Shown piece by piece: positions 40,475 to 55,280 of a stretch of DNA of 64,000 nucleotides; position 1 is the first letter of the stretch, and each line of letters begins with the position of its first letter. The notes below the pieces were generated by a model, which searched no databases, was not told the DNA's origin, and saw only the letters and a list, made by a program, of their open reading frames with translations. The stretch comes from Alphaproteobacteria bacterium (GTDB lineage: Bacteria; Pseudomonadota; Alphaproteobacteria; UBA828): the NCBI GenBank assembly GCA_963667785.2, contig CAXXMU010000002.1, positions 736,001-800,000 of the forward strand, given 5' to 3'. A program made the translations under genes and the position numbers.

Positions 40475-41179
40475 TCAGTCGCCGAAGTAGGCCGCCGCGA
40501 TCTCGGGGGATTCGCGCAGCTCCTCGGGCGTCCTCGGCTCGCCGATGCGGCCGGTCTCTAGCAGGTAGACCTCCCGCGCGAGGCTCATGGCGAAGTTCAC
40601 GTTCTGCTCGGTGATCACGATGGTGAGCCCGAGCCGCTCGTTCAGGTCCTTGAGCACGGCGGCGATCTCGAGGCATACGCGGGGCGCGAGGCCGAGCGTC
40701 GGCTCGTCCACCATGAGCAGAGTCGGGCTCGACATCAGTGCGCGGCCGAGCGATGCCATCTGACGCTCGCCGCCGGACTGGGTCGCGGTCTCCTGCTTCT
40801 GCCGCTCCTCGAGCCGGGGGAAGAGGTCGAACACGGTGCGCAGGTTGGCCTCGATCGCGTCCCGCTTGCGATAGGCGCCGACGAGCAGGTTCTCCTTCAC
40901 CCCCATGAAGGGGAAGAGGTTGCCACGCTCCGTCGCGTAGCCGATGCCGAGCCGGATGATCCGCGCCGGCGACATGCGGGTGATGTCCGTGTCGGCGAAG
41001 GTGATCTGCCCGCGCCGCCTCGTCAGGCCCACGATGGAATCGAGCAGGGTCGACTTGCCGGCGCCGTTGGGGCCGACGACGGCGACGATGCTGCCCGCCT
41101 CCACCTCCAGCGAGACGCCGTGCAGCGCCTGGGCCCGGCCGTAGAAGACATCGAGATCGCCGATGCTCAGGAGCGCCAC
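40475..41179 (-). CDS. livF: Liv-type ABC transporter ATPase
   Basis: GPNGAGKST, SGGERQM, DEPTLGLAP, EQN. Confidence 0.88.
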   Translation of the reverse strand: MALLSIGDLDVFYGRAQALHGVSLEVEAGSIVAVVGPNGAGKSTLLDSIVGLTRRRGQITFADTDITRMSPARIIRLGIGYATERGNLFPFMGVKENLLVGAYRKRDAIEANLRTVFDLFPRLEERQKQETATQSGGERQMASLGRALMSSPTLLMVDEPTLGLAPRVCLEIAAVLKDLNERLGLTIVITEQNVNFAMSLAREVYLLETGRIGEPRTPEELRESPEIAAAYFGD

Positions 41180-41200
41180 GATCCCCTCCCCTTCCCGCTC

Positions 41201-41938
41201 CTACTGCCCGAGATAGGCATCGCGGACCGCCTCGTCCTTCACCACCTCGTCGAACGTGCCTTCCGCAATGATGGCGCCGAAGGACATGACGATGACCCGG
41301 TCGACGAGCGGCGCCAGCGCGCGCAGATCGTGGCTGACGATGATGTAGGTGAGCCCGTCCCTGCGCTTCTTCTCCACCAGTAGCTCGGAGATCTGCGCGA
41401 TCTCCTTCAGGGTCAACCCCGCGAAGACCTCGTCGAGCAGCAGCAGCCTGGGCGAAACGGCGACGTTGCGCGCCATCTCAAGCCGGCGCAGGTCGCCCAT
41501 GGCGAGCTCGCTCGGCAGCCTCTCGATCTGCTCGTCGGAGAAGCCGACGCTGCGGCCGATCTCCGCCTCGGCCGCCTGGTCCGCTCCCTCGGCGACAAGC
41601 TTCCAGAGGTTGTCCGGCGCCATGCCGACACGGATGTTGGCGCCCACCGACATTTCGCCGAAGGGCTGGGGGACCTGATAGGTGCGCGCGATGCCGCGCT
41701 TGACCCGCTCGTGGGTGGGCACGCGGGTGACGTTCTCGCCCTTGAACCAGATTTCGCCCTTGGTGGGCTTGAGCTCCGCCATGATCATGTTGAAGACGGT
41801 CGTCTTGCCGGCGCCGTTCGGGCCGATCAGGCCGAGCGTCTCGCCCTCCGCCACCTGGAAGGAGATTCCCTGCACGGCGCGGATGCCGCCGAAGGTCATG
41901 TGCAGGTCGCGCACCTCCAGCAGCGGGCCTTCGGTCAT
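41201..41938 (-). CDS. livG: Liv-type ABC transporter ATPase
   Basis: FGGIRAV, GPNGAGKTT, RTYQ, LLDEVFAGL, AYLG. Confidence 0.88.
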   Translation of the reverse strand: MTEGPLLEVRDLHMTFGGIRAVQGISFQVAEGETLGLIGPNGAGKTTVFNMIMAELKPTKGEIWFKGENVTRVPTHERVKRGIARTYQVPQPFGEMSVGANIRVGMAPDNLWKLVAEGADQAAEAEIGRSVGFSDEQIERLPSELAMGDLRRLEMARNVAVSPRLLLLDEVFAGLTLKEIAQISELLVEKKRRDGLTYIIVSHDLRALAPLVDRVIVMSFGAIIAEGTFDEVVKDEAVRDAYLGQ

Positions 41939-42888
41939 CGCCGCCACTCCTGCACCTTGCGGCCGGCGTCGGCGATGATGGCGTAGATGCCTTCGGGCTT
42001 GACGACGTAGAGCACCAGCGCGATGCCGCCGTAGAGGAGATAGCGCTCCATGCCCGGCATCACCGGCCGGAGATACTCGAGCAGGACGGTCAGGAAGTAG
42101 GCGCCCATGATCGGGCCGATGATCGTCTCGGCCCCGCCGAGCAGCGCCGCGACCAGGATGGTGAAGAGGAAGCTGATCTCGAACATGCCGCGCGGCGCGA
42201 TCGAGCCGATGTAATGGACGTAGAAGGCGCCGCCGATGCCGGAGACGGCGGCGCTCACCGTGAAGGCGAAGAGCTTGAGCTTGGTGGTGTTGTGGCCGGT
42301 GCTGCGGACCGCCTCCTCGTTCATCCTGATGGCGCTCAGCGCGATCCCGAGGCGGGTGCGGATGAGGAGCCAGAGCACCACCCCGATCACGAACATGATG
42401 CCGAAGCTGAGGTAGTAGTTGTTCACGGCGCCGGAGACGATGCTCTCGAGGCCCGAGATGCCCCTGGTGCCGCCCGTGATCTTGGGCGCCACGACCTTGG
42501 TGAGCTGGTAGAGGATCTCCATGAAGGCGAGCGTCACCAGCGCGAAGTAGGTGCCGCGGATGCGCAGCGCCGGCAGGAAGAAGAGCGTGCCGCCCACCAT
42601 GGTCGCCGCCACCGCCGCCGGGATGCTGTAGTAGATCGGGACGTCGAAGCGGAAGCTCAGGATCGCCGTGGTGTAGCCGGCGATGCCGATGAGAAACGGG
42701 TGGCCGAAGCTGATGTAGCCGGTCCTGCCGGAGAGGAAGTCCCAGCTCATGGCGAACATCGCCAGGAAGTGGGCGAAGATCAGGATGCGCAGCGTGCCGG
42801 TGCCTACCACCAGCGGCAGCAGGCACATGAGCACGCCGAAGGCGAGCCACCAGCCGAGATAGCGCAGCGTCTCGCGGTCAACGGCCAT
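41935..42888 (-). CDS. livM: Liv-type ABC permease
   Basis: GYISFGH, RGTYFALVTLA, TGG..G, GPIMGA. Confidence 0.87.
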   Translation of the reverse strand: MAVDRETLRYLGWWLAFGVLMCLLPLVVGTGTLRILIFAHFLAMFAMSWDFLSGRTGYISFGHPFLIGIAGYTTAILSFRFDVPIYYSIPAAVAATMVGGTLFFLPALRIRGTYFALVTLAFMEILYQLTKVVAPKITGGTRGISGLESIVSGAVNNYYLSFGIMFVIGVVLWLLIRTRLGIALSAIRMNEEAVRSTGHNTTKLKLFAFTVSAAVSGIGGAFYVHYIGSIAPRGMFEISFLFTILVAALLGGAETIIGPIMGAYFLTVLLEYLRPVMPGMERYLLYGGIALVLYVVKPEGIYAIIADAGRKVQEWRR

Positions 42889-42891
42889 GGC

Positions 42892-43746
42892 TCAGAGCTC
42901 CGCCTTGCCGAAGAGGCCCTTGGGCCGCACCAGCAGCACCAGGATGATGAGCAGCATGGTGGAGACGCCGCGCAGCTCGGCCGCGATCAGGGTGGTCGTG
43001 ATCGTCTCGACGAATCCGATGATGTGGGCCGCGATCAGGCTGCCGACGATGCTGCCGATGCCGCCGACGATCACGACCGCCACCGAGATGATGAGCGGGA
43101 ACACCCACATGTGGGAATCGAGCTGGGTGAAGGTCGCGAAGAAGACACCGGCGATGGCGCCGAAGGCGCCGCTGAGCGCCCAGGTCACCATGCTGATGAC
43201 GCTGGGCTCAATGCCCGAGATCACCGCGCCCTTGCGGTCCATGGAGACCGCGCGGATGGCGCGGCCGAGATGGGTGTAGCGGACGAAGGCCATGAGGCTG
43301 CCGAGCACCACCCAGCTCACGCCGGTCGCCAGCAGGATGTTCATGGTGACCGAGACGCCCTCGTAGCGGAGCACGCCGCGAATCACCGGCCACATGGTCT
43401 TGGGTGCGGCGCCGAAGATCACCACGATCAACGCCTGCATGACGACGGCGAGGATCAGCGTCGATATCTCGACCGCGATCGGGTTGTCCTCCAGCCGGCG
43501 GACCAGGAACAGATAAGTGAGCAGGCCGAAGGTCACGCCCGCCAGGATCGCCAGGATGAAGCTTGCGAAGACCGGCAGCCCCGCCTCCTGGAGGGCCGCG
43601 TAGTAGATGTAGCCGCCGAGCATGATGTAGACGCCGTAGGCCAGGTTCAGCACCCGGCCGACGCTGAAGATCATGGTGAAGCCGACGGCGATCAGCGCGT
43701 AGAGGCCGCTGAGCACGAACCCCTGGATCAGGATCTGGAGCGCCAT
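42892..43746 (-). CDS. livH: Liv-type ABC permease
   Basis: YALIAVGFTMIF, LNLAYG, GRAIRAV, VGGIGS, RPKGLFG. Confidence 0.88.
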   Translation of the reverse strand: MALQILIQGFVLSGLYALIAVGFTMIFSVGRVLNLAYGVYIMLGGYIYYAALQEAGLPVFASFILAILAGVTFGLLTYLFLVRRLEDNPIAVEISTLILAVVMQALIVVIFGAAPKTMWPVIRGVLRYEGVSVTMNILLATGVSWVVLGSLMAFVRYTHLGRAIRAVSMDRKGAVISGIEPSVISMVTWALSGAFGAIAGVFFATFTQLDSHMWVFPLIISVAVVIVGGIGSIVGSLIAAHIIGFVETITTTLIAAELRGVSTMLLIILVLLVRPKGLFGKAEL

Positions 43747-43884
43747 CAGAGCTCGCTCGCGGGCCGTCGGGTCAGCGTTCGCACGGAGGCCGGGACGCTC
43801 CGATCACGGGCGACCCCGGCGCACTTCCAGCAAGGCAAACCGGGCGCGACCCGTATAGCCGCGCCCGGTGAGTGACTAGCCGAC

Positions 43885-45189
43885 CTACTTCAGCCAGTCC
43901 GGCACCTCGAACTCGCCGTTGGCGTACTTCGGCGGGTAGACGACCTTGGTGGAGCCATCCGAGTACCACTGGATGACCACCATCGACGGCGCCCCTTCAT
44001 CGTAGGGCGGGTTGATGTCGAACTTGATGTTGTGGGTGTATTCCCGCTGGGTGCGGGGCTCGATCTCGCCCGGCTTCCAGAAGGCGTAGCGGAGCCAGAT
44101 CTCGCCGTCCTTCTCGACGACGATATCGTCGTTCTCCATCTCGCGGACCCAGTCGTCGAGCGGCTCGAAGCCGCCGGCGCGCTCCGCCGCGGCGAAGGCG
44201 TTGAGCATCCCGTAGTAGGCGTTGAAGCCGTTGAAGTGCGGGAAGACCGGCCGCGAATCGCCGTACTTGGCAGCGTACCTGTCGAGGAAGTCCTGCGTGC
44301 GCGGGTCGATTTCCGAGCCGATGGAGGGCACCGGGCTCAGCGTCGAGATGCCGCCGCCGAGGCCGCCGGTATCGTCCCAGAACTCCCGGGCGAAGGCCGA
44401 GACGTTGATCCCGGTCATCGGCAACGGCACCTCGAGCTTCACGTACTGCGAGGCCGGCACCTGGCTGCGCACCGCCGCGATCGAGTAGATGAAGTCGGGC
44501 TCCGCCGCCACCGCTTTGTTGTAGATGGGGCCGAAGTCGACCGTGTTGGTGTCGTAGACGGTGTGACCGATGATCTCGATGCCGGCCTCCGGCGCGAGCA
44601 CCTGCTCGATCAGCTCGTAGACGCCGCCGCCGAACGCGGTGTCCTCCTGCAGAACGTACACCGTCTTCCAGCCCATCTTCTTGGAGAGCACGTCCTTGCC
44701 GAAGTCGACGTAGAGGATGGCCAGCGCGTAGTCGTTGGAGACGTTCATGAAGTACATCTTGTACTTCTCGTACTCCTCGACGACCTTGTCGATGATGCCG
44801 ACATAGGAGGTCCAGGTGTCGAGGGTCGGCGTCCGGTACTCCGCCATGCGCTCGAGCCAGCCCAGCGACACGTCGTCGATGCAGCCCGAGATGATGAAGT
44901 CGACGTTCTCGACCTCGTTCAGGTATTCGTAGGCCTTGATGCCCTCCTGCACGTCCTCGCGTGTGTCGGCCTTGACCAGCTCGATCATGCGCCCGCCGAG
45001 CACCCCGCCGGCCGCATTGATTTCCTCGATGGCGATCTCGGTGCCCCGGATCGTGCTCTTGCCCGTGTCGGTGTCGAACGAGCCGATATAGCCGACCTTG
45101 ATCGGGTCGGCGGCAGGTGCGGCGGTCGTAAGCGACCAGACGGCCGCCGTGGCGACTGCGGCGCCTATCAGCAGATGACGGACTTTCAT
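43885..45189 (-). CDS. Liv-type ABC substrate-binding protein
   Basis: Signal peptide, IKVG, EEINAAGGVLGGR.IEL, EDTAFG; first gene of the liv-type operon. Confidence 0.88.
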   Translation of the reverse strand: MKVRHLLIGAAVATAAVWSLTTAAPAADPIKVGYIGSFDTDTGKSTIRGTEIAIEEINAAGGVLGGRMIELVKADTREDVQEGIKAYEYLNEVENVDFIISGCIDDVSLGWLERMAEYRTPTLDTWTSYVGIIDKVVEEYEKYKMYFMNVSNDYALAILYVDFGKDVLSKKMGWKTVYVLQEDTAFGGGVYELIEQVLAPEAGIEIIGHTVYDTNTVDFGPIYNKAVAAEPDFIYSIAAVRSQVPASQYVKLEVPLPMTGINVSAFAREFWDDTGGLGGGISTLSPVPSIGSEIDPRTQDFLDRYAAKYGDSRPVFPHFNGFNAYYGMLNAFAAAERAGGFEPLDDWVREMENDDIVVEKDGEIWLRYAFWKPGEIEPRTQREYTHNIKFDINPPYDEGAPSMVVIQWYSDGSTKVVYPPKYANGEFEVPDWLK

Positions 45190-45721
45190 GACCCCAACCT
45201 CTCTTCGTCGTTAGCTATCTCCCGGATCGCACTACTGTAGCCCGGAACTCTCACAACTGTCATGGTCTGCGCGACGCGCCCCGCCCGGCGGGTGGGCAGG
45301 GTGCGGTGGTGGCTCCGACGAGCGCGCCGCTGCCTCACCTCGGCGAGACGAGGGGACGGAATCGCCGGAATCGGCGGGCGGGCTCGGGATCACACCTCGT
45401 GCTTCGCGGACTTGACCGCCGCGCGCCCGGACCCGACATGCATACATGTTCGGTGAACGACGACGGCAATCCGAGACCCCGCATGCGCCTGTTCGTGACG
45501 AGACGCACTGGCCGCACAACTCGCAGACCGAAACGCGGCATTGGGGCCCCGTTCTCAATTCGCTTTCTTGTATCGTCCGGTCGTGGCAGTCTTTTCATTT
45601 CGACCATCCTTGAGGTAGTCAATCCCGCACTGCTCACCGATCATGTGCGTCCCTTCGAATTGCGCGGCAGTTCCGGCGCTCGTACTGTGTCACGACTTCA
45701 GGTCCAAGGAGGCCACGGCTG

Positions 45722-47749
45722 ATGGCTGATTCGACCGAGGGTCTGGCATCCCAATCCCTGACGCTGCCCGAGGAGCTCATCCTGATGCTCCTCAACGACG
45801 AGACAGGCTACTTTCACCAGGTCCAGGGCTGGGAACTGAACTGCGCCGTCGTCGGCGCGGTACTGGCGGAACTGTCCCTCCTCGAGCGCATCGACACGGA
45901 CATGGAGTCGCTGCTCCTGGTGGACCGGACGGAAACGGGAAACCCGGCGCTTGATCCCATTCTGAAGGAAATCGCGGACGAGCCGGTTCGGCACAACGCC
46001 CAGTACTGGATCGAGCGACTCGCTGCCCATGCGGATTCGGTCATCGACCTGACTCTCGACCGCCTGGTCGATCTCAAGATCCTGAAGCACCACGACGGCG
46101 ATTTCTGGACCCTGGCCCCTACCAGCCGCTACTCCGACCAGTACGGCCACCTCGACGATGACACCCCGGATCAGTTCATCAAGACGCGCATCAGCGTCTA
46201 CATCTTCACCGAGGCGATCCCCGATCCGAGAGACATCATCATCATCTGCCTCGTCAATACCTGCGATGTGTTTCGCTTCATTTTCGACCTCGACGACGAG
46301 GCGGAGGAGCGCATCAAGTTCATCTGCAGAATGGACCTGATCGGCCGCTCCATCGCCGATGCGGTCGAAGCGAACATTGCCAGCCCGCTGCTTCGACACG
46401 CCGCCTTCACCAAGAAGATTCCGGTCGTTCCATGGCACAAGCTGCTGCTCAATCGACACATGCGCGATCGCAACATCCCCGGAATCTGCGCCGGGCTCGC
46501 GCAAGAGTACGGGCCGGTGTTTCAGATCCGTCCGCCGTTCGGCGAGACCGTGACCTTCCTGGCCGGGGCCGCCACCAACCGCTGGCTCCACCGCAACGGG
46601 CGGATGTACCTGAGATCCAAGGACTACTTCACCGATGTCGAGAAAGTCTACGGCGCCTCCGGGCTGATCCCCTCCCTCGACGGCGCCGATCACTTCCGGC
46701 AGCGCAAGGCCATGCAGCCGGGCTATTCTCGCGAGAGGCTGGAGGGAGAGCTGGACGCCCTCTACGGTCACATTCGCGCATTCATGGCGGATTGGAAGGT
46801 GGGCTCGACCCTGCCGGGCACCGCCACCTGCCGCCTCATGGTCAACGCTCAGATAGCGCCCGTCATTCTCAGCATCGAGGCACAGGACATCGTGGAGGAC
46901 CTGATCAAGTTCAAGGAGCGGGCGCTCACCACGCACGTCGCGAGGGTCCTGCCCAAATTCATGCTGCACACCCCGGGCATGAAGAAGCCTGCCAGGGCCA
47001 TCGAAGTGGCGGTGCAACGGATCCTGAACGTCCACACGCCCGCGCAGAGGTCCGGCTGCCCGCGCACCCTCGCGGACGACATGCTCAGCCTCCATGCCAG
47101 CGACCCGCAGTTCCTCCCCGAGTCGAACATGGCGTTCTATCTGTCGGCGCCCATGCTCGCCAGCATGTACCTCGGCGATGCGCTGGGCTTCGGCCTCTAC
47201 GCCATGGCGTCGCAGCCCGAACTCTACCGCCGGATTCGGGGCGAGGCCGATGCCCTGTTCGCCGACGGCGACCCGGACGGGGCGGCCTACACCAAGTCGG
47301 CCCTCGACGTCACGAACCGCTTCATCATGGAGTGCATGCGCATGTACCCCGTGGTGCCCGCGTCGATTCGCAACGTGATGAACTCGTGCGTCATCGAGGG
47401 CTACCAGCTTCCGGTGGGGGCACGCATCGTCATCGCCCAGACGGCCCCGCACTACATGAGCGACGTCTTCCCGGAGCCTTACAAGTTCGACATCGACCGC
47501 TACCTGCCGCCGCGCAACGAACACCGCAGCCCCGGATACGCGCCTTACGGGCTCGGCACTCACATGTGTCTCGGCTTCCGCTGGATGGAAATGCAGCTCA
47601 CCGTCAATCTGCTGATGATCGCGCGCTACTTCACGCTCGAGGTGTCGCCGAAGAACTACAAGCTCCGGATCAACCCGTTTCCGTCGATGTCTCCGAACAG
47701 GAAGCTGAAATTCCGCGTCGCCGAGCAGGCGCGCGAGCTGCCCGTCTAG
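45722..47749 (+). CDS. Fusion: N-terminal GPP34 (GOLPH3-like) domain + cytochrome P450
   Basis: N-terminal LTLPEELILMLLNDETG...GAVLAELSL..RI...LDRLV is GPP34-like; C-terminal YGPVF, LDGADH...RK, ECMR (ExxR), FDIDRY, YGLGTHMCLG (heme Cys). AAGGAGG RBS; single uninterrupted ORF. Confidence 0.82.
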   Translation: MADSTEGLASQSLTLPEELILMLLNDETGYFHQVQGWELNCAVVGAVLAELSLLERIDTDMESLLLVDRTETGNPALDPILKEIADEPVRHNAQYWIERLAAHADSVIDLTLDRLVDLKILKHHDGDFWTLAPTSRYSDQYGHLDDDTPDQFIKTRISVYIFTEAIPDPRDIIIICLVNTCDVFRFIFDLDDEAEERIKFICRMDLIGRSIADAVEANIASPLLRHAAFTKKIPVVPWHKLLLNRHMRDRNIPGICAGLAQEYGPVFQIRPPFGETVTFLAGAATNRWLHRNGRMYLRSKDYFTDVEKVYGASGLIPSLDGADHFRQRKAMQPGYSRERLEGELDALYGHIRAFMADWKVGSTLPGTATCRLMVNAQIAPVILSIEAQDIVEDLIKFKERALTTHVARVLPKFMLHTPGMKKPARAIEVAVQRILNVHTPAQRSGCPRTLADDMLSLHASDPQFLPESNMAFYLSAPMLASMYLGDALGFGLYAMASQPELYRRIRGEADALFADGDPDGAAYTKSALDVTNRFIMECMRMYPVVPASIRNVMNSCVIEGYQLPVGARIVIAQTAPHYMSDVFPEPYKFDIDRYLPPRNEHRSPGYAPYGLGTHMCLGFRWMEMQLTVNLLMIARYFTLEVSPKNYKLRINPFPSMSPNRKLKFRVAEQARELPV

Positions 47750-47768
47750 CCCGGATTTCTCGCCAGGC

Positions 47769-49127
47769 TCACGCCTTCCTGAAGCGCCGGCCGTACATCG
47801 TGCGGCCATAGAAGTTGAACCACTTGCGCGCCTCGGAATCCTCGAACGGATAGTCCGCCCCGAGCTGCCTCGCGGTGACGAGGCCGGTGACGAAGCAGGT
47901 CTCCTGGCTGTTGACCAGAGTGTGGGCGCCGCAGTGCCACGTCCGCCGCTTGCCCTGAACGAAGCGGAACAGGTGGATCAGGATGGCCACGTGGGGCACG
48001 TCGTGCACGATGTGCTGAAACCACCACCTCTTGATGATCTTGCCTTCGTCGATACGGCTGATCGGGTTGTAGGTCACCAGGCACGGCTTGTCCGACCGGT
48101 GCACCCAGGGCTGCTGATTGTGCATGATGTAGGTGATCTCGTAATTGTCGGGTCTCGCCCCGTACTGCTCGATGTGATTGCTCCGCGTCGCGAGCGGCTC
48201 GACCTCGTTGTCGGGAAGAACCGACGCGTCGGAATGGACGACCGTGTGGTTGTGCAGCTCGCTCTCGTAGCGGATCGAAGAGAGAAGGCTGCTCTCCATG
48301 AAGGTCGGCTTGTCCAGCATCATCAGCGTCTGATTGGCGTTGCAGGCGAAGACGACATCGTCGAACGTCTCGGTCCCTCCGTTCTCGTCCTCCACGACGA
48401 CTTCGCCTGCGCGCCGATACACTTTCCGCACCGGTCGCTCGAGGTAGATCCTGTCCCGAAAGGCGGCCGACAGCGCCTCGTAGATGCGCCGCGTGCCCCG
48501 GTCCCAGGTCTGCATCGGCGTTGCGGTCTCGATATCGAAGAACTCAAGATAGCGGGAGAACAGGGACGCAGGCATGTCGAACACGTTCGTCGCCATCAGG
48601 AAATTGACGAACATCGGCTTCAGTATCTTGTACCTGAAGTCTCCGGAGTACCTGCCCAGATTGAGGATCGCGCCCATGCTGACGTAGTTGTACGGGTTGA
48701 AGGCGTTGAGCAATCTGGACTTGCTCCGATTGAGGCGGCCGAACCAGCGCAGGCGCCGCAGCAGCCGCTGGAACTTCTCGATCTCCGGCTGCAATTGCCT
48801 CCTGATGTCGGAGTCGAAGTCGTGCGCGTAGACGCCGCCGCGATACTTCACGCTGTAGCTGAACCTGGTGTCGATCAGGTCGATACCGAGCTGCTGCATG
48901 AGCAGGACGATGTGGTGGTACACCGAGGGAATGCACGCGGTGACGGAAATATCGAACGGAATCGAGGTGCCGTCGTCCTGCGGCATGTCGGCCGTGATGG
49001 CATTGCCGCCGACCTGAGCCTGCGCCTCGTACAGGCGAAAGTCGAATCGATCGGGGTGGCGATCGAGCGCCCAGGCCACCCCCAGCCCGGAGACCCCTGC
49101 GCCGACTATGGCAACCCGTCTCGGCAT
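47769..49127 (-). CDS. FAD-dependent oxidoreductase (COG2907-like, amine oxidase fold)
   Basis: VAIVGAGVSG, YEAQAQVGG, FDDVVFAC, VVHSDASVLP, TY.M, QGKRRTWHCGA...ARQLG. Confidence 0.8.
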   Translation of the reverse strand: MPRRVAIVGAGVSGLGVAWALDRHPDRFDFRLYEAQAQVGGNAITADMPQDDGTSIPFDISVTACIPSVYHHIVLLMQQLGIDLIDTRFSYSVKYRGGVYAHDFDSDIRRQLQPEIEKFQRLLRRLRWFGRLNRSKSRLLNAFNPYNYVSMGAILNLGRYSGDFRYKILKPMFVNFLMATNVFDMPASLFSRYLEFFDIETATPMQTWDRGTRRIYEALSAAFRDRIYLERPVRKVYRRAGEVVVEDENGGTETFDDVVFACNANQTLMMLDKPTFMESSLLSSIRYESELHNHTVVHSDASVLPDNEVEPLATRSNHIEQYGARPDNYEITYIMHNQQPWVHRSDKPCLVTYNPISRIDEGKIIKRWWFQHIVHDVPHVAILIHLFRFVQGKRRTWHCGAHTLVNSQETCFVTGLVTARQLGADYPFEDSEARKWFNFYGRTMYGRRFRKA

Positions 49128-49197: not shown

Positions 49198-50019
49198 CTA
49201 GCGGATGCGCTTCAGGGCGGTCTTGGTGAAGTCGCCCACGTCGAGGTCGGTGCCGAACTCGTAGTCCAGCCAGTGCAGCTCGGTGCTCTTTCCCGTGAGA
49301 TGGTTCGTCATCGTGATCTTGCTGGCCCGCCAAAAGCGATCGAGATACTTCTGGTAGCCCTCCACGGCCATCGTCTTGAGGTGCGCGTCCCTGCGATCGT
49401 GGAACTGGATCTGCTGGACGCGAAGCTCCTCCTGGTCGAACCAGACGATCTGACGGGAGTAGCCCGACTTCCGGTCGAGCGGGACACGCTCCACCACGAC
49501 GCATTCGAGCTCGCCGCAGGGCTCGTCGCGCAGGTACGTGTACGCGTACTTCTCGATCTCGGAGGCGCCCAGGTCCTCGTAAGCGAACTCGCTGCCCATG
49601 AAGGAGCCGGACTGGTTCGAGGAACTGATGCGCTTGACCCGTTTCAGGGCGGGAAGATAGAGCCACTGCTCGTCCGGCTCGTCCTTGTGGGCATGGACGA
49701 GAAACGCCGTTCCCTTGACGTCGCGCGGCCGGTCGAACACGAACATGGTGCGATCGCCGTCCCCCTCGACCTCGATGACCTGCAGGCGAAGCTCGCGCCG
49801 GCTTTCCTGCCCGCGCTTGTTGCGCAGGACCATGTTGAGACTCGCGGTGAAATTGCCGAAACCCTTCTCGCGCTCGCGGGCGTCGGTCGCGATCCTGAGC
49901 CCGGCTTCCTCGGCGCTTTCGGCCGCCCGAGAGACCGGCGGCTCGACCGCCCAGGCCAGGACGGCGACGAAGAGCCCGAAGAGCGCAAGCAACAGGTAGG
50001 GGGAAGAGACGCGGATCAC
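49198..50019 (-). CDS. Outer-membrane lipoprotein-sorting (LolA-like) periplasmic protein
   Basis: Signal peptide; FDRPRDVKGTAFL, QWLYLPALKRVKRI, FMGSEFAYED, SGYSR. Confidence 0.87.
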   Translation of the reverse strand: MIRVSSPYLLLALFGLFVAVLAWAVEPPVSRAAESAEEAGLRIATDAREREKGFGNFTASLNMVLRNKRGQESRRELRLQVIEVEGDGDRTMFVFDRPRDVKGTAFLVHAHKDEPDEQWLYLPALKRVKRISSSNQSGSFMGSEFAYEDLGASEIEKYAYTYLRDEPCGELECVVVERVPLDRKSGYSRQIVWFDQEELRVQQIQFHDRRDAHLKTMAVEGYQKYLDRFWRASKITMTNHLTGKSTELHWLDYEFGTDLDVGDFTKTALKRIR

Positions 50020-50185: not shown

Positions 50186-51451
50186 TCAGAAGTTGTAGTC
50201 CAGGTTCACCCCGATGTAGCTGTCCCGCCGCGCGACATAGGCGGCGTCTTCCTCGTCGATCCCCACATAGGCGGCGGCTTCCACGTGCAGGGACAGGCTG
50301 TCCGACAGGCGGCGCTTGAACTCGGCGCCAAGAACGCGGCTGCTGTTCTCGAGGGAGTTCAGCACGCTGCCGACGAACTCGGTGCTCTGCTCGTCGTTCA
50401 GCCCGAGACGCGCGACGAGGAGCAGGTCGTTCTCGAACGCGTTGGTCGCCCAGCGGCCTCTCCCGTCGTGGGTCCATTCGGCGATCAGGGTCAGTTCGGC
50501 GTCGAGTTCCCACGGGGAATAGATCGCGTACTCGCCGCCGAGCACGAAGGCCGCGTAGTCCTCTTCCTCGTAGTTGAGGGTCCGATCGAGTCGGGCGTTC
50601 TGCGCGCCGGCGCGGTGAATGGCTTCCAGCTTGAGAAGCCAGGGGCCGGTGGTGAGCTGGGTATCCAGGCCGAACTGCTGGATCTGCTCGTAGTACGGCG
50701 CCAGAACGAGCTCGCGGCCGACCAGCATCGGCAGCAGGGTGGGCTCGCGGCTGGTGCCGTCGAACGCGCTGAGCCCGACATCGAGCGGGCCGACGCTGCC
50801 GGTGTAACGGCCGGCGAGATCGACGTGCCACTCTTCATGCACTGATTCGTACGCGGTCAGAGAGTGGTCTACGACCAGCGCGGGACGCAGGCGGCCGTGG
50901 CGGCCCGGGTAGGTGCGCTTGCGGTGCCCGGTCAGCGCGAACAGCTCCAGCGCCCCCCAGTCTCCCGACAGGGTGACGTGGGCCATCGGCTGGCCCAGCT
51001 TGGTCTTCTCGTCCGGGTGCTCCACCAGGTCGGTCTGGTTGACGATATCGACCAGGGAACGCGATTCGACGACGCCCCAGAACACGCGATCGACGCCGAG
51101 CCGCAGCTCCCATTCGCCCTCGCCGATATCGCCGTAGAGGAGGAGGAAGGCCTCGCGGAGGTCGGCGTGGGTGCGCTCCGGATCCCCGGCGTCGAAGCGG
51201 TAGAAGGGCGTGACCGTGATGCTCCGGCCTTCGTCGTCCTCCATGTAGGCGGTGATCTCCGCGGCGAAGCCGCTCGAATGGGAGCGCTGGTCGGCGAACG
51301 CGGGAGTCTCGGGGTAGAGCCGGGTCTCCGGCGAATAGCGCCCGGAAAGCTCGAAGTAATCGATGAACCCGTCGTCGGCGTGTGCGCCGGTCGCGAGCAG
51401 CGGGACCAGCATGCCGAGCGCCGGGAGGAGGACGGGGAGGCGCGCGATCAT
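50186..51451 (-). CDS. Predicted outer-membrane beta-barrel protein
   Basis: Signal peptide; DLREA, G.DRVFWG, DIVNQTD, KLGQPM; C-terminal beta-signal YIGVNLDYNF; lies between the RND and LolA-like genes. Confidence 0.75.
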   Translation of the reverse strand: MIARLPVLLPALGMLVPLLATGAHADDGFIDYFELSGRYSPETRLYPETPAFADQRSHSSGFAAEITAYMEDDEGRSITVTPFYRFDAGDPERTHADLREAFLLLYGDIGEGEWELRLGVDRVFWGVVESRSLVDIVNQTDLVEHPDEKTKLGQPMAHVTLSGDWGALELFALTGHRKRTYPGRHGRLRPALVVDHSLTAYESVHEEWHVDLAGRYTGSVGPLDVGLSAFDGTSREPTLLPMLVGRELVLAPYYEQIQQFGLDTQLTTGPWLLKLEAIHRAGAQNARLDRTLNYEEEDYAAFVLGGEYAIYSPWELDAELTLIAEWTHDGRGRWATNAFENDLLLVARLGLNDEQSTEFVGSVLNSLENSSRVLGAEFKRRLSDSLSLHVEAAAYVGIDEEDAAYVARRDSYIGVNLDYNF

Positions 51452-51506
51452 CCCGCCCTCCTCACCTCCGGCACGGATGGAGAACCGGGGCACGCGCCCG
51501 CGTTGT

Positions 51507-53867
51507 TCAACTGCTCCCCTCGCTCGCCACCTTGGTCGCTCCGCCCGTCCCCTTTCTTCTATCGAGAATCATGAGCAACGGCGGGAGGAACAGGAAGTCC
51601 GCCAGGAGAGCGATGATGACCGTCGTTCCCGCCAGCAGACCGAGCGCCTGGTTGTTCGCCATCCCCGATGCGCCGAACACCATGAAACCCAGCGCGAACA
51701 CGACGGTCGTCGCCAGCAGCGCCTTGCCGACCGTGCCGAAGGCGGACTGGACGGACTCCTCCGGCGACTGCCCGCTCTTCCGGCCTCTCAGATACTTGGT
51801 CATGAAGTGAATCGTGTCGTCCACGATGATGCCGAACGCGATGGCGGTGACGACCGACGCCGAGACTCCGACCTGTCCCACCGCATACCCCCACAGCCCC
51901 ATCGCCATGGCGGCCGGAACGAAATTGGGTATCAGGCTGATCAGGCCGAAGCGCACGCTCCTGAAGATGAAGATCAGCAGCAACGAGACGATACCCATCG
52001 CCGTGATGGTGCCAATCAACATCTTCTCGATGTTTCTGTTGATCGAGTGCGCCCCGACGATCGTCATCCCGGCGGCGCCGGTTTCCAGACCGGGAGCATT
52101 CTGGCGCAGCCAGTCGCGCGCGCGCTCGTCGAGCTCCAGCTTCTGGTTGACGGAGAGCGCCTTCAGGACGACCGTCAGGCGGGTCGCCGACCGTTCGACG
52201 TCGATCAGGTTGTTGAGGTCCAGGCCCACCGGCAGAGAGAATTCGTAAAGCAGCAGGTATTGGGCGGCGAGCTCGGTGTCGTCCGGAATGCGGTAGAACT
52301 CCGGATCGTCGCCATTCAGATTCTTGTTCAGGCGCTTCACGATGTCGGTGACGCCGAAGACATGAGCGACTTCGGGCTGCGCCCGGTACCACTCCGCGAA
52401 CGCGTCGACCTGCTTCAGATAGCCGACATCCGTGATGCCGCCCTCTTGCCCGGACTCGAGCGAGTACTCGAACGGCTCCAGGCCGGAGAAATTGTCGCTC
52501 ACGAAATCCGTGGCTCGCCGGAACTCGTAGCTTTCGCTGAGAAGCTCGAGGTGATTGTCGTCGAGTTCGATGCGCGAGATGCCGGCAACCAGCGCCACGA
52601 CGAGGACGCCGAAGGCAGCCAGCATGACAATGCGGCGGGACACGACGAAGCGCCCGAAACGCTCGAAGAAGCGGTCGAAATAATCGGTCTTCCCGGCCTT
52701 GGCGGGCCGGACGCGCAGGGGCATGAGAGACAGGAAAGCCGGCAGGAGCGTCACCGAAAAGACGAAGGCGGACAGCGAGCCGAAGGCGACGATATTGCCC
52801 ATGACCCGAAACGGCGGCATCTCGGAGAAGTTCAGGCTGAGGAATCCGATTGCCGTCGTGATCGACGTCAGGAATACGGGCCACACGTTGAGCTTCAGAG
52901 AGTGGATCGCCGCCTGTCTGCGGTCCATTCCCTGGCGCAGGCCCGCCAGCATTCCCTCTATGATGTGCACGCAATGTGCGACCGTGATCGCCATCAGGAC
53001 GAACAGCGCCGCCCCGCTCTCGCCGTAGAACTTCATGCCGGCCCAGCCGCCGAAGCCCAACGCGGATATGACGATCGCAATGATCATCAGGATGATCGCG
53101 ACGATTCCCCAGACCGTGCGCAGCATGAGCAGGGCGACGAGCAGCATGACCCCGAGCGCGATGGGGCCGAGCAGGCCCATGTCCTCGTTGAGCGCGTCGC
53201 GAACCGCGCGATTGAGCAGGACTTCGCCGGTCAGGTAATACCCGTGGGTCGGATGCTTCGTTCGCGCCTCGGCGGTGGCGGCGTTGAGGTAGTCGACGAC
53301 GTCCAGCTTGGCCTGCTCCCGCTCCTCGTCGGGGATCGCCGCGCTGACGATCAGCCCGGCAACGCGACCGTCCCGGGAAATCAGACGCCCGGCAATTTCC
53401 TCGGTACCGAGCGCGATACTCTCGATCCGCTCTATGTCGTCGTCAGTCAGCGCAGCGGCGTCGTCGATAAGCGGATCGACGATCAGCTCGTCCTCGAGGC
53501 CTTCGCTATGCGAGTAATTCGTCAGTGAATCGACGCGGATGACGTAAGGCGTGCGCCACAGCGCCTCGGTCAACTCTTCTATGGCAGCAAGCGATTCCTG
53601 CGTGAAGACGGTACCGCTCTTCGGCGCTACGGCAACCAGCATGGTGTCGGAGATGGCGTAGGTGCCTTCCAGTTGCTCGAGCGCGACAAGATTCGGGTCG
53701 TCTTTACTGAAATGATTGCGAGAATCGACGTCGACGTTGACGAGGTTCTGGGCACCTGCGGCGAGCAACAGCACGACGATCACGGAGAGCAAAATGGTCA
53801 GCCACCGGCGACGCATAATGTGCGCTATGGAGGAGTCCAAATCGATGCCGGAGGGGAGGTACTTCAT
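51507..53867 (-). CDS. MMPL/RND superfamily lipid transporter
   Basis: Two repeats of periplasmic loop plus TM bundle; LTSITTAIGFLSL, PNFVP, GIIVDDTIHF, ALLATT, FLPPLL. Confidence 0.9.
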   Translation of the reverse strand: MKYLPSGIDLDSSIAHIMRRRWLTILLSVIVVLLLAAGAQNLVNVDVDSRNHFSKDDPNLVALEQLEGTYAISDTMLVAVAPKSGTVFTQESLAAIEELTEALWRTPYVIRVDSLTNYSHSEGLEDELIVDPLIDDAAALTDDDIERIESIALGTEEIAGRLISRDGRVAGLIVSAAIPDEEREQAKLDVVDYLNAATAEARTKHPTHGYYLTGEVLLNRAVRDALNEDMGLLGPIALGVMLLVALLMLRTVWGIVAIILMIIAIVISALGFGGWAGMKFYGESGAALFVLMAITVAHCVHIIEGMLAGLRQGMDRRQAAIHSLKLNVWPVFLTSITTAIGFLSLNFSEMPPFRVMGNIVAFGSLSAFVFSVTLLPAFLSLMPLRVRPAKAGKTDYFDRFFERFGRFVVSRRIVMLAAFGVLVVALVAGISRIELDDNHLELLSESYEFRRATDFVSDNFSGLEPFEYSLESGQEGGITDVGYLKQVDAFAEWYRAQPEVAHVFGVTDIVKRLNKNLNGDDPEFYRIPDDTELAAQYLLLYEFSLPVGLDLNNLIDVERSATRLTVVLKALSVNQKLELDERARDWLRQNAPGLETGAAGMTIVGAHSINRNIEKMLIGTITAMGIVSLLLIFIFRSVRFGLISLIPNFVPAAMAMGLWGYAVGQVGVSASVVTAIAFGIIVDDTIHFMTKYLRGRKSGQSPEESVQSAFGTVGKALLATTVVFALGFMVFGASGMANNQALGLLAGTTVIIALLADFLFLPPLLMILDRRKGTGGATKVASEGSS

Positions 53868-54194
53868 GAATGGTGCGTCGTCAGATGTCAGTCGGGGAGT
53901 GGCTCTGACACGGTTCCCGCTCGCCGCTCAATGCAGCCGGAAGCCGTGTGGCGACGTCCAGAATCGGGAGCATTTCCATGGCAGTATCACAGCCTCCCGA
54001 TCCCTTGTCCATCGCTCTCTCGGGCGAACCCGCCCGCCTTGCGGCGGCTGCGCGGGCGCGCGACCGCGATCCACGCACGCTCGCCGCGGTTGGCGACGTG
54101 TTGCGCGCTCACTACATAATCCGGTATGGCGTGGACGGGGTTCGATGCCCCGCGACCATATGCCGCCCTGCACTCCGGGCCGACGGTCCTTGCC

Positions 54195-55280
54195 ATGCAG
54201 ATGCATCTTCATCGACAGAGTGTCCCGCAAGACGTGGAAGAGAATCTGATCGCGGGCGGTGACGATCCCTCCCTCTTCCCGTTTCCCGAAGGGTGGTACT
54301 TCGTTGCCGACCGCCGCTCGTTAGCGAAGGGCGAACTGATCGAAAAGCAGTGGATGGGGCAGGACATCGTCGTCTGGTGCAACGACGAGGGAGCCGTCTG
54401 CGTCGCCCGGTCGCTCTGCCCTCACCTGGGATCCTCCCTGGGCCCCGCCGCCGGCGGGCGCGTGCGCGACGGCCGACTGGTCTGTCCCTTTCACGGCTTC
54501 ACCTACGACGCGACCGGCGCCTGCGTCGCGACTCCCTATGCGCCGCCCCCCAAGGGCACGAGACTGAGCGTCTTCCCCACGCGGGAGATTCTCGGCCTCG
54601 TCTTCGCCTGGTGGGGCATCGACGGACGCCCGCCGCAATGGGACCTGCCCGAAGAGCCGGCGGCAGGAGACGAGTGGAGCGACCTTGAAATCGAGACCCT
54701 CCGGTTTCCTGGCCACCCTCAGGAGACGACGGAGAACTCGGTGGACCTGGCCCACCTGCGCTACGTGCACGGCTACGACAACGTGAAACCCGTCGGATCG
54801 GCGACGGTGGAGGGCGCACGTCTCGTGAGCTGCTTCGACTTCAGGCGTCGCACGCGCATCGCCGGAGTCATCGACCTCGTCTTCGACGTGTCGGCCGCCA
54901 CCTACGTCCACGGGCTGGGCTACTCGTTCGTCGACATCCGTGAGCACACCGTCGGCATGGAGACCCGCCTGTGGGTTCTGACCACGCCGGTCGACGGCAC
55001 GCTCGTCGACCTCGTTCTGGTCTCGCAGGCTCGCATGCTGCGAAAGCCCAAGCGTTTCGTCGCCGGCCTCGGATTCCTGCCGGTGAAGGTGCGCACCGGG
55101 ATCATGAACAGGTTTCTGCTTTCCATACAGAAGCAGGACGTTCTCCAGGACGTCGTGATCTGGGGGAAGAAGAGCTACCGGCCCCATCCAAGCCTCTGCG
55201 GCTCCGACGGTCCCATCGGCAGGTACCGGCGCTACTGCAGGCAGTTCTATCCGCGTGGCGACGATGGCGGACGCAGCTAG
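54195..55280 (+). CDS. Rieske non-heme iron oxygenase/desaturase alpha subunit (KshA/Neverland-like)
   Basis: FPEGWY, CPHLG...CPFHG (Rieske), ENSVDLAHLRYVH (Fe site), QDVVIWGKK, GPI.RYRRY..QFY; start approximate. Confidence 0.85.
   Translation: MQMHLHRQSVPQDVEENLIAGGDDPSLFPFPEGWYFVADRRSLAKGELIEKQWMGQDIVVWCNDEGAVCVARSLCPHLGSSLGPAAGGRVRDGRLVCPFHGFTYDATGACVATPYAPPPKGTRLSVFPTREILGLVFAWWGIDGRPPQWDLPEEPAAGDEWSDLEIETLRFPGHPQETTENSVDLAHLRYVHGYDNVKPVGSATVEGARLVSCFDFRRRTRIAGVIDLVFDVSAATYVHGLGYSFVDIREHTVGMETRLWVLTTPVDGTLVDLVLVSQARMLRKPKRFVAGLGFLPVKVRTGIMNRFLLSIQKQDVLQDVVIWGKKSYRPHPSLCGSDGPIGRYRRYCRQFYPRGDDGGRS

Follow-up and report, generated by a model that had tools for sequence, protein, structure and literature searches.

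The closest described relatives of the gene considered here are the long GPP34 proteins (GPP34_L) that Ferreira et al. set apart from a short form (GPP34_S) in sponge-associated bacteria (Ferreira et al. 2025, Microbiome 13:4, PMC11706023). As set out in the main text of that paper, 656 of the 663 long proteins consist of a GPP34 domain followed by a cytochrome P450, and these occur only in sponge symbionts, across many phyla; rare fusions of GPP34 to Rieske proteins and to ATPases of ATP-binding cassette (ABC) transporters are also described, and in 8 of 13 and 17 of 19 genomes a P450 gene is found no more than five genes away from short GPP34 genes. The authors proposed that GPP34 is a secreted effector that binds phosphatidylinositol 4-phosphate (PI4P) and blocks phagosome maturation; their main text reports no biochemistry for the long form. 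A second body of work concerns clusters of steroid genes and sterol methyltransferase (SMT) genes in the same symbiont communities, for which horizontal spread has been argued (Kelly et al. 2022, PMC9531527; Brown et al. 2023, PMC10070321). The present analysis connects the two. Its subject is a GPP34-P450 fusion gene in a 64,000-nucleotide stretch of an alphaproteobacterial genome of lineage UBA828 (contig CAXXMU010000002.1, positions 736,001 to 800,000; hereafter the window), and its gene neighbours and those of its relatives suggest sterol modification inside the bacterium rather than manipulation of the host. On balance we judge, at somewhat better than even confidence, that the protein is a cytoplasmic sterol-tailoring P450 belonging to a module shared horizontally among sponge symbionts, with the GPP34 domain acting as an accessory adaptor that does not work through PI4P.

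In its architecture the window protein is a member of GPP34_L: the order of an N-terminal GPP34 and a C-terminal P450 domain, a length of about 675 residues, the presence in symbionts of several phyla, and the company of several short paralogues all agree, and nothing structural differs from the published description. An earlier note on this DNA, made from the sequence alone, had stated that no characterised GPP34-P450 fusion was known; this holds for biochemistry, none having turned up in the literature found, but the architecture itself had already been published as GPP34_L, in the parts of PMC11706023 that define the two forms. The fusion family is thus not new, and the addition made here is the link to sterol genes. 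The words sterol, steroid, and methyltransferase are absent from the main text of Ferreira et al. (2025), whose supplement may show such a link, and GPP34 is absent from the main texts of PMC9531527 and PMC10070321, whose figures or supplements may show this P450 under another label. In the literature found, apart from supplements that may hold one, no connection between the fusion and sterols appears.

The gene genuinely joins a Golgi-phosphoprotein-like domain to a cytochrome P450. The earlier note had read it as a single 675-residue open reading frame (ORF) holding a GPP34 region and a complete P450, and profile searches bear this out: residues 15-217 match GPP34 (PF05719; E 1.3e-29, 104.2 bits against a gathering cut-off of 29.1, model positions 1-200 of 201), residues 247-656 match p450 (PF00067; E 3.6e-33, 115.5 bits against 22.8), and the ExxR motif and the loop around Cys616 are in place. 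Both Pfam domains recur in all 120 of the best database clusters listed (query included), whose members measure 654-697 residues at 66-85% identity. An assembly chimera at the junction, a doubt raised in the same note, is ruled out by these clusters and because contigs from four of four public runs, belonging to four studies, bridge nucleotides 46382-46457 (X1, 46299-46927; X3, 45775-46699; X5, 46338-46624; X9, 46353-46700). The GC content at third codon positions (GC3) is 0.87, typical of the real genes of the window (69% GC). An antisense ORF of 703 codons at 45698-47809 is read as a high-GC shadow because both Pfam matches sit in the plus-strand frame, and an ORF at 45306-45722 (+) with low GC3 and no Pfam match was not treated as a gene. 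A scan for promoters and terminators returned nothing on the plus strand for the fusion gene, and NCBIfam models matched the protein far below threshold only (best 70.5 bits against a cut-off of 800).

The case for a sterol function comes from gene neighbourhoods. Relatives of the fusion gene occupy 79 distinct loci in species-representative genomes, all of them records of metagenome-assembled genomes (MAGs) carrying the labels of at least nine phyla and many bearing sponge-type bin or taxon names. Flanks of up to 10 kb on either side were compared by tblastn at a minimum of 35% identity and 40% coverage. By this measure an SMT with CMAS and Sterol_MT_C domains is present at 48 of the 79 loci, a pump of the resistance-nodulation-division (RND) superfamily with a sterol-sensing domain (SSD) at 40 (27 of the MMPL830 type and 13 of the MMPL786 type), a KshA-like Rieske oxygenase at 35, a flavin adenine dinucleotide (FAD)-dependent oxidase with a median identity of 80% at 29, a 435-residue protein at 18, and a LolA-like protein at 17. 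At least one strict sterol marker accompanies the fusion at 50 loci, and at least one recurrent gene of the module at 69. Clustering of the ORFs from 80 loci gave a similar figure for the SMT (45/80) and placed an ERG4/24 reductase family at 14/80, against 2/79 by tblastn with a single Nitrospira query at 35% identity or more; Pfam confirmed ERG4_ERG24 in the cluster representative and in three of three further members, and likewise identified CMAS plus Sterol_MT_C and MMPL plus Sterol-sensing/Patched in the other module representatives. The most complete arrangement cited here, on a Nitrospirales chromosome (L004), runs from GPP34-P450 through the FAD oxidase, a 244-residue ORF lacking a Pfam match, a fusion of squalene epoxidase to oxidosqualene cyclase (SE-OSC), a CYP51-like P450, and ERG4/24 to the Rieske oxygenase; the SE-OSC protein (L004:14613-18020, minus strand) has 1135 residues and matches SE, FAD_binding_3, and both the N- and C-terminal SQHop_cyclase families. 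Two further neighbour families without Pfam matches, of 183 residues (32 loci) and 399 residues (14 loci), were dropped because they are shadow ORFs that run antisense within the SMT and MMPL genes. Downstream of the module in loci of Thermodesulfobacteriota and Dadabacteria, signalling genes also recur, encoding a response regulator-SpoIIE phosphatase, a HATPase_c_2 anti-sigma-type kinase, and a HAMP histidine kinase (13 loci each; exemplars at L040:14900-16491 and L062:17673-19898).

The genome from which the window derives (4.09 Mb in 14 contigs, 98% complete) carries the corresponding genes elsewhere. On the same contig (C2:358.5-365.4 kb) lie ERG4/24, a CYP51-like P450, a cyclase, and an SMT, and the cyclase is a 1164-codon open frame (C2, about 361-364.4 kb) that matches the SE-OSC fusion of L004. 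The ERG24, CYP51, cyclase, and SMT genes of the clusters described in the main texts of PMC9531527 and PMC10070321 resemble those of this genome and of L004. Two SMTs, both with Sterol_MT_C, and six GPP34 genes, the fusion and five short ones, were counted in the genome as a whole. Among 20 other species of the genus, a fused orthologue with more than 50% identity was found in nine. An SMT match accompanies it in eight of the nine and occurs in 4 of the 11 genomes that lack the orthologue, counts that are descriptive since such kin are not independent. The distance between SMT and fusion is less than 1 kb in three of these genomes and about 2 kb in a fourth. The 20 genomes searched from other genera of the same family, order, and class yielded no fused match, and one of them has short GPP34 genes only. 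As side observations, a second set of LolA-like, 435-residue, and MMPL genes, 40-59% identical to those of the window, is located at C6:314046-338710, 13-24 kb from the second SMT of the genome, which is of the module type, and a stand-alone P450 at C5:178415-179632 shares 33% identity with the P450 domain of the fusion; matches of 31-34% identity were seen in 16 of the 20 other genomes of the genus.

Cytochromes P450 are recognised by a heme-thiolate loop, FxxGxxxCxG, with its cysteine ligand and by an E-R-R triad. In the window's P450 domain the triad is represented by E537 and R540 of the ExxR motif and by R593 (FDIDRY, a PERF-type arginine), all of which, like C616, are invariant throughout an alignment of 30 family members; within the loop Y609-G610-L611-G612-T-H614-M-C616-L-G618, residues G610, L611, and H614 are equally invariant. 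The I-helix departs from the usual pattern. The acid-alcohol pair of the AGx(D/E)T motif is absent, its place taken by A-S-M-(gap)-Y-L-G, in which alignment to relatives with AG[LIM][DEH]T opens a gap of one residue, and Y483 and G485 are invariant in all 30 members; most other GPP34-P450 subfamilies retain the canonical motif, from which that of the window differs. Loss of the pair is a known kind of P450 variation and no ground for excluding a protein from the P450s, having been seen in enzymes that desaturate, that use substrate-assisted O2 activation, or that rearrange peroxides; the chemistry of the window enzyme may therefore differ from ordinary O2-activating hydroxylation. Among solved P450s, those nearest in both sequence and fold are CYP184A1, CYP120, and CYP51; for CYP184A1 and CYP51 the E values are 5e-22 to 2e-18 and the template-modelling (TM) scores on the target 0.79-0.82. 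CYP184A1 and the CYP51 14alpha-demethylases, including the Methylococcus CYP51-ferredoxin fusion (6mcw, 7snm), belong with the window P450 to a common eukaryote-like class, and CYP51 also shares its sterol context; however, identity to CYP51 and CYP184A1 is about 17-21%, the I-helix lacks the acid-alcohol pair, and the fusion partner is not a redox domain. A 14-demethylase role was rejected because a separate CYP51-like gene accompanies the cyclase both in L004 and in the window's own genome.

Several observations weigh against a sterol-tailoring role. The substrate is read from the neighbours only, and the literature found holds no biochemical datum for any member of the family. No SMT, cyclase, or ERG4/24 gene lies inside the window itself, these genes being about 420 kb away or on another contig, and 10 of the 79 loci, one of them a 2.9-kb contig, lack any recurrent neighbour. 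The RND, Rieske, and SMT matches fall far below the cut-offs of the NCBIfam equivalogs BstA, HpnN, and SdmA. The 40 ORF clusters with the widest distribution include no ferredoxin or reductase, and their candidates of about 100 residues proved to be opposite-strand frames inside larger genes. The nearest solved P450 by both sequence and fold, ahead of CYP51, is CYP184A1, solved with oleic acid (7wzl). Finally, the cyclase family was found in only three of five other genomes searched, and sterol synthesis may therefore be missing from some of the bacteria that carry the gene.

Part of this evidence lends itself to a reading in which the module tailors some other lipid, such as a hopanoid, another triterpenoid, a carotenoid, or a fatty acid, and the neighbours owe their sterol labels to family resemblance alone. 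The distance of the methyltransferase, pump, and Rieske protein from characterised sterol and hopanoid equivalogs and the ranking of CYP184A1 agree with this, as do the membership of the FAD oxidase in the PPO/CrtI/LkcE amine-oxidase superfamily and the high scores (426-485 bits) of the squalene-hopene-type cyclase matches in the three positive genomes. The Sterol_MT_C domain is nonetheless present in the module methyltransferase and in both copies of the window's own genome, and ERG4/ERG24, the SE-OSC fusion, and a CYP51-like P450 adjoin the gene in Nitrospirales; the main text of Brown et al. reports, moreover, that SMTs of sponge symbionts methylate sterols in vitro (Brown et al. 2023, PMC10070321). 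We regard a non-sterol substrate as unlikely, though worth keeping in view. Somewhat less probable still is steroid catabolism, in which the P450 and the KshA-like oxygenase would open or hydroxylate host sterols as a carbon source imported by the RND/LolA-like system. It would account for the best solved relatives of the Rieske neighbour, which are 3-ketosteroid 9alpha-hydroxylases (4qdc, E 8.5e-26), for acyl-CoA dehydrogenase genes at 14 of the 80 loci, and for the two gene-bearing genomes of the five in which no cyclase family match was found. The commonest neighbours, however, are biosynthetic or tailoring genes (SMT, ERG4/24, SE-OSC), and apart from the acyl-CoA dehydrogenase no gene for ring cleavage or side-chain beta-oxidation appeared among the scanned representatives, a part of the 40 most shared ORF clusters; genomes were not searched for the 9,10-seco pathway.

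Profile and predicted fold both show the N-terminal domain to be genuinely homologous to GOLPH3/Vps74. A single-sequence search of the PDB with the fusion protein did not reach GOLPH3, and a profile was needed: built from 31 fused and short GPP34 sequences, it matched human GOLPH3 (3kn1, E 7.5e-14) and yeast Vps74 (2zii, E 2e-9). An AlphaFold2 model of residues 1-230 reached a mean predicted local distance difference test (pLDDT) score of 84.7 and a predicted TM score (pTM) of 0.84, and all eight of its Foldseek matches in the PDB at E of 0.001 or below were GOLPH3 or Vps74 structures (TM 0.60-0.71), the next match having an E of 0.42. The structures 3kn1, 9qpq, 2zih, and 2zii thus share the fold of the window domain, and a beta-hairpin in the model (strands E121-124 and E128-131) is also found in GOLPH3/Vps74. 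The two differ in that identity is about 19%, the window domain is strongly acidic and fused to an enzyme, and it has no Golgi, COPI, or glycosyltransferase context. They differ also at the PI4P pocket, for which the residues R90, W81, R171, and R174 of GOLPH3 are described as key in PMC3596250. In the profile alignment R90 corresponds to V44 and R174 to I108, R171 falls in a 10-residue segment absent here, and W81 corresponds to Q35 (proline in the family consensus), the W81 column being aligned with lower confidence than that of R90. Residues 1-225 carry a net charge of -25 (isoelectric point (pI) 4.31), which argues against electrostatic binding to anionic lipid; the charge is -11 to -25 in 26 aligned fused members and -4 to -14 in the five short paralogues. 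The earlier note had cast the domain as a GPP34 module for membrane or lipid targeting or for scaffolding. Its family assignment stands, whereas targeting of the PI4P type is not supported by the residues seen here, and the scaffolding or adaptor role is the reading that we prefer. Three arginines (R56, R156, and R197) and D58, D60, and W96, invariant in fused and short forms alike, may mark a site of another, non-PI4P kind.

The charge of the domain has also suggested an intramolecular regulator. In this reading the very acidic GPP34 domain would bind the basic P450 of its own chain, perhaps over the surface that meets the redox partner, and so control the passage of electrons or the entry of substrate, without engaging a membrane or a partner. 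The complementarity of the two halves (pI 4.3 and net -25 for residues 1-225; pI 9.2 and net +10 for the P450) fits such docking, as does the shortness of the linker, in which only residues 225-227 fall below a pLDDT of 50 in a full-length model with a pTM of 0.81. The five free-standing short GPP34 genes of the genome, together with the GPP34-Rieske and GPP34-ABC-ATPase fusions given in the main text of PMC11706023, argue instead for a more general adaptor role, and we consider the regulator highly doubtful. A complex prediction between residues 1-225 and 235-675 (scores 0.00, 0.40, and 0.02) gave no verdict and was not used either way.

The fusion is old and deeply diversified. A search of 1.84 billion representatives with the P450 domain returned GPP34 in 52 of the best 150 clusters (defined at 50% identity) and in 42 of the 48 among them with at least 600 residues, at P450 identities down to 25%. 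Among ten long representatives scanned with Pfam, eight, all with an N-terminal extension, have GPP34 plus p450, and the other two are P450s with a cNMP_binding domain. The P450 relatives (P0233, P0254, and P0188) accordingly include fusions to a C-terminal cyclic-nucleotide-binding domain (2/10) and, as one of the eight, a protein of 872 residues with two N-terminal GPP34 domains. A quick maximum-likelihood tree built from 85 fused proteins groups its rows largely by labelled phylum (12 changes of label, where 8 would be the minimum). The branches that separate phyla are short, and the window protein, 72% identical to Nitrospira copies, falls in a well-supported clade of ten rows from Pseudomonadota and Nitrospirota. 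Such a tree fits gene transfer from one symbiont lineage to another and vertical descent thereafter, a history like that which Kelly et al. (2022, PMC9531527) argue in their main text for steroid gene clusters in symbionts of Ircinia. Tandem GPP34-P450 paralogues within about 3 kb were noted in six loci (L027, L031, L040, L047, L054, and L078). The stretch itself is present in runs labelled as sponge metagenomes, with near-identical contigs in X3 and X9 (studies P2 and P4). Across the conserved parts of the gene (45743-47900), summed contig depth ran from hundreds to thousands in all four runs, with many fragments 90-95% identical, so that these metagenomes must contain numerous related copies carried by other organisms.

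This distribution bears most directly on the published proposal of a secreted effector, by which the GPP34 protein, once released, would bind host PI4P on the phagosome and stop its maturation, allowing the bacterium to persist in sponge cells. Restriction of the family to MAGs of sponge and coral symbionts favours it, and Table 1 of Ferreira et al. (PMC11706023) lists 16 of 20 bacterial phyla and none of 85 free-living genomes; expression in 45 of 107 MAGs is also reported by these authors. The presence of the stretch in sponge-metagenome runs, the occurrence of the fused orthologue in 9 of 20 genomes of the genus and in none of the 20 from other genera, and the fold of a eukaryotic PI4P effector also agree with it. 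On the other side, the fused form has no signal peptide or transmembrane segment (maximal 19-residue Kyte-Doolittle value 1.9, in a buried helix, and an acidic N-terminus), although a signal-less secretion route is compatible with the sequence; its P450 requires heme, a reductant, and a redox chain; the genes beside it encode lipid enzymes and pumps of the cytoplasm or inner membrane; and the residues and charge of the GPP34 domain described above, in this protein and across the 26 fused members, do not support a secreted role through PI4P. The lack of export signals, the cofactor needs, and the nature of the neighbours argue that the fused protein acts inside the bacterium, and for this form we hold the effector model to be very improbable.

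Under the sterol-tailoring reading, the protein would be a cytoplasmic enzyme of a module for tailoring and transport of sterols, or sterol-like lipids, common to sponge symbionts of many phyla. Its P450 domain may oxidise, desaturate, or rearrange a sterol, the side chain being the most plausible target because of the linkage to the methyltransferase. The GPP34 domain is placed where eukaryotic sterol P450s have their membrane anchor and, acting in cis, could couple the enzyme to its source of substrate, whether the inner membrane, the RND transporter, or partner enzymes, in a manner presumably other than through the eukaryotic PI4P pocket. Rosetta-stone reasoning lends this reading support, since Ferreira et al. 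report P450 genes close to short GPP34 genes as well as GPP34 fusions to Rieske and ABC-ATPase domains. A bolder variant joins two propositions: that a P450 lacking the threonine and carrying Tyr483 is not a monooxygenase but a redox-partner-independent or desaturating enzyme, and that bacterial GPP34 is a general adaptor through which lipid enzymes (P450, Rieske, ABC ATPase) are tethered to a complex for membrane transport. Examples of such chemistry would be the rearrangement of sterol peroxides or hydroperoxides, or the making of side-chain olefins needed by the adjacent methyltransferase. We put this variant forward as speculative, with odds clearly against it.

Within the window, the fusion gene is followed by a run of candidate module genes and preceded by a divergent transporter (Table 1), with housekeeping genes farther out. 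Neither the LolA-like nor the 435-residue neighbour matched an NCBIfam model at E of 1e-5 or below, and an Atlas search gave the latter a lead only, to DUF1302 (35% of one cluster). The arrangement recalls the BstABC system for sterol transport and HpnN for hopanoids, which likewise have an RND/MMPL inner-membrane pump with an SSD-like region beside lipid-tailoring genes; the likeness of the window pump to BstA (NF045600, 36 bits against a cut-off of 1400) and to HpnN (NF052374, 52 against 1100) is weak and below threshold. A Peripla_BP_6 protein that differs from that of the window recurs in 14 of the 80 related loci, and may be compared with the GPP34-ABC-ATPase fusions mentioned in the main text of PMC11706023.

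Table 1. Features of the fusion gene and of its surroundings, in positions of the window
Feature	Position	Strand	Basis
GPP34-P450 fusion gene, 675 aa, ATG start (P0001)	45722..47749	+	ORF, Pfam, GC3, database clusters
Shine-Dalgarno AAGGAGG, 9 nt ahead of ATG	45706..45712	+	read directly from sequence
GPP34 (GOLPH3/Vps74-fold) domain, residues 15-217	45764..46372	+	Pfam, profile, fold
Short linker and P450 N-terminal lead-in, residues 218-246	46373..46459	+	Pfam, model
Cytochrome P450 domain, residues 247-656	46460..47689	+	Pfam, sequence, fold
Atypical I-helix centre A480-S481-M-Y483-L-G485	47159..47176	+	family alignment
ExxR motif, E537-R540	47330..47341	+	E537, R540 invariant
Heme-thiolate loop G605-G618 (GYAPYGLGTHMCLG), Cys616	47534..47575	+	sequence, family alignment
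Liv-type ABC transporter (two ATPases, two permeases, Peripla_BP_6 protein), divergent, upstream	40475-45189	-	
FAD amine-oxidase-family oxidoreductase (PPO/CrtI/LkcE superfamily), convergent neighbour	47769..49127	-	
LolA_like / DUF1329-type lipoprotein-carrier-like protein	49198..50019	-	
435-aa protein without Pfam match	50186..51493	-	Atlas lead only, DUF1302-type clusters
MMPL/HAE3-type RND transporter with sterol-sensing-domain match	51507..53867	-	
KshA-like Rieske oxygenase (Rieske + KshA_C)	54126..55280	+	

GPP34-P450 is among the most widespread of the symbiosis-specific gene families of sponge bacteria, and the only published interpretation of it has been host manipulation via PI4P. 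If the protein does belong to a sterol module, bacterial GPP34 domains would gain a testable metabolic function, a new, unassigned enzyme would join the bacterial sterol pathway, and, for the fused form at any rate, the effector model in print would have to be revised. The context is of broader interest in that sterols of sponges, where the side chain is unusual, serve as the oldest molecular fossils of animal life, and the contribution of symbionts to them is disputed, as the main text of Brown et al. (2023, PMC10070321) relates. Should the bolder variant, with a Tyr483 enzyme and a general GPP34 adaptor, prove true, some of the unusual sterols now attributed to sponges would be made or remodelled by their symbionts, and the part that GOLPH3/Vps74 plays in retaining enzymes in eukaryotes would have a bacterial precedent.

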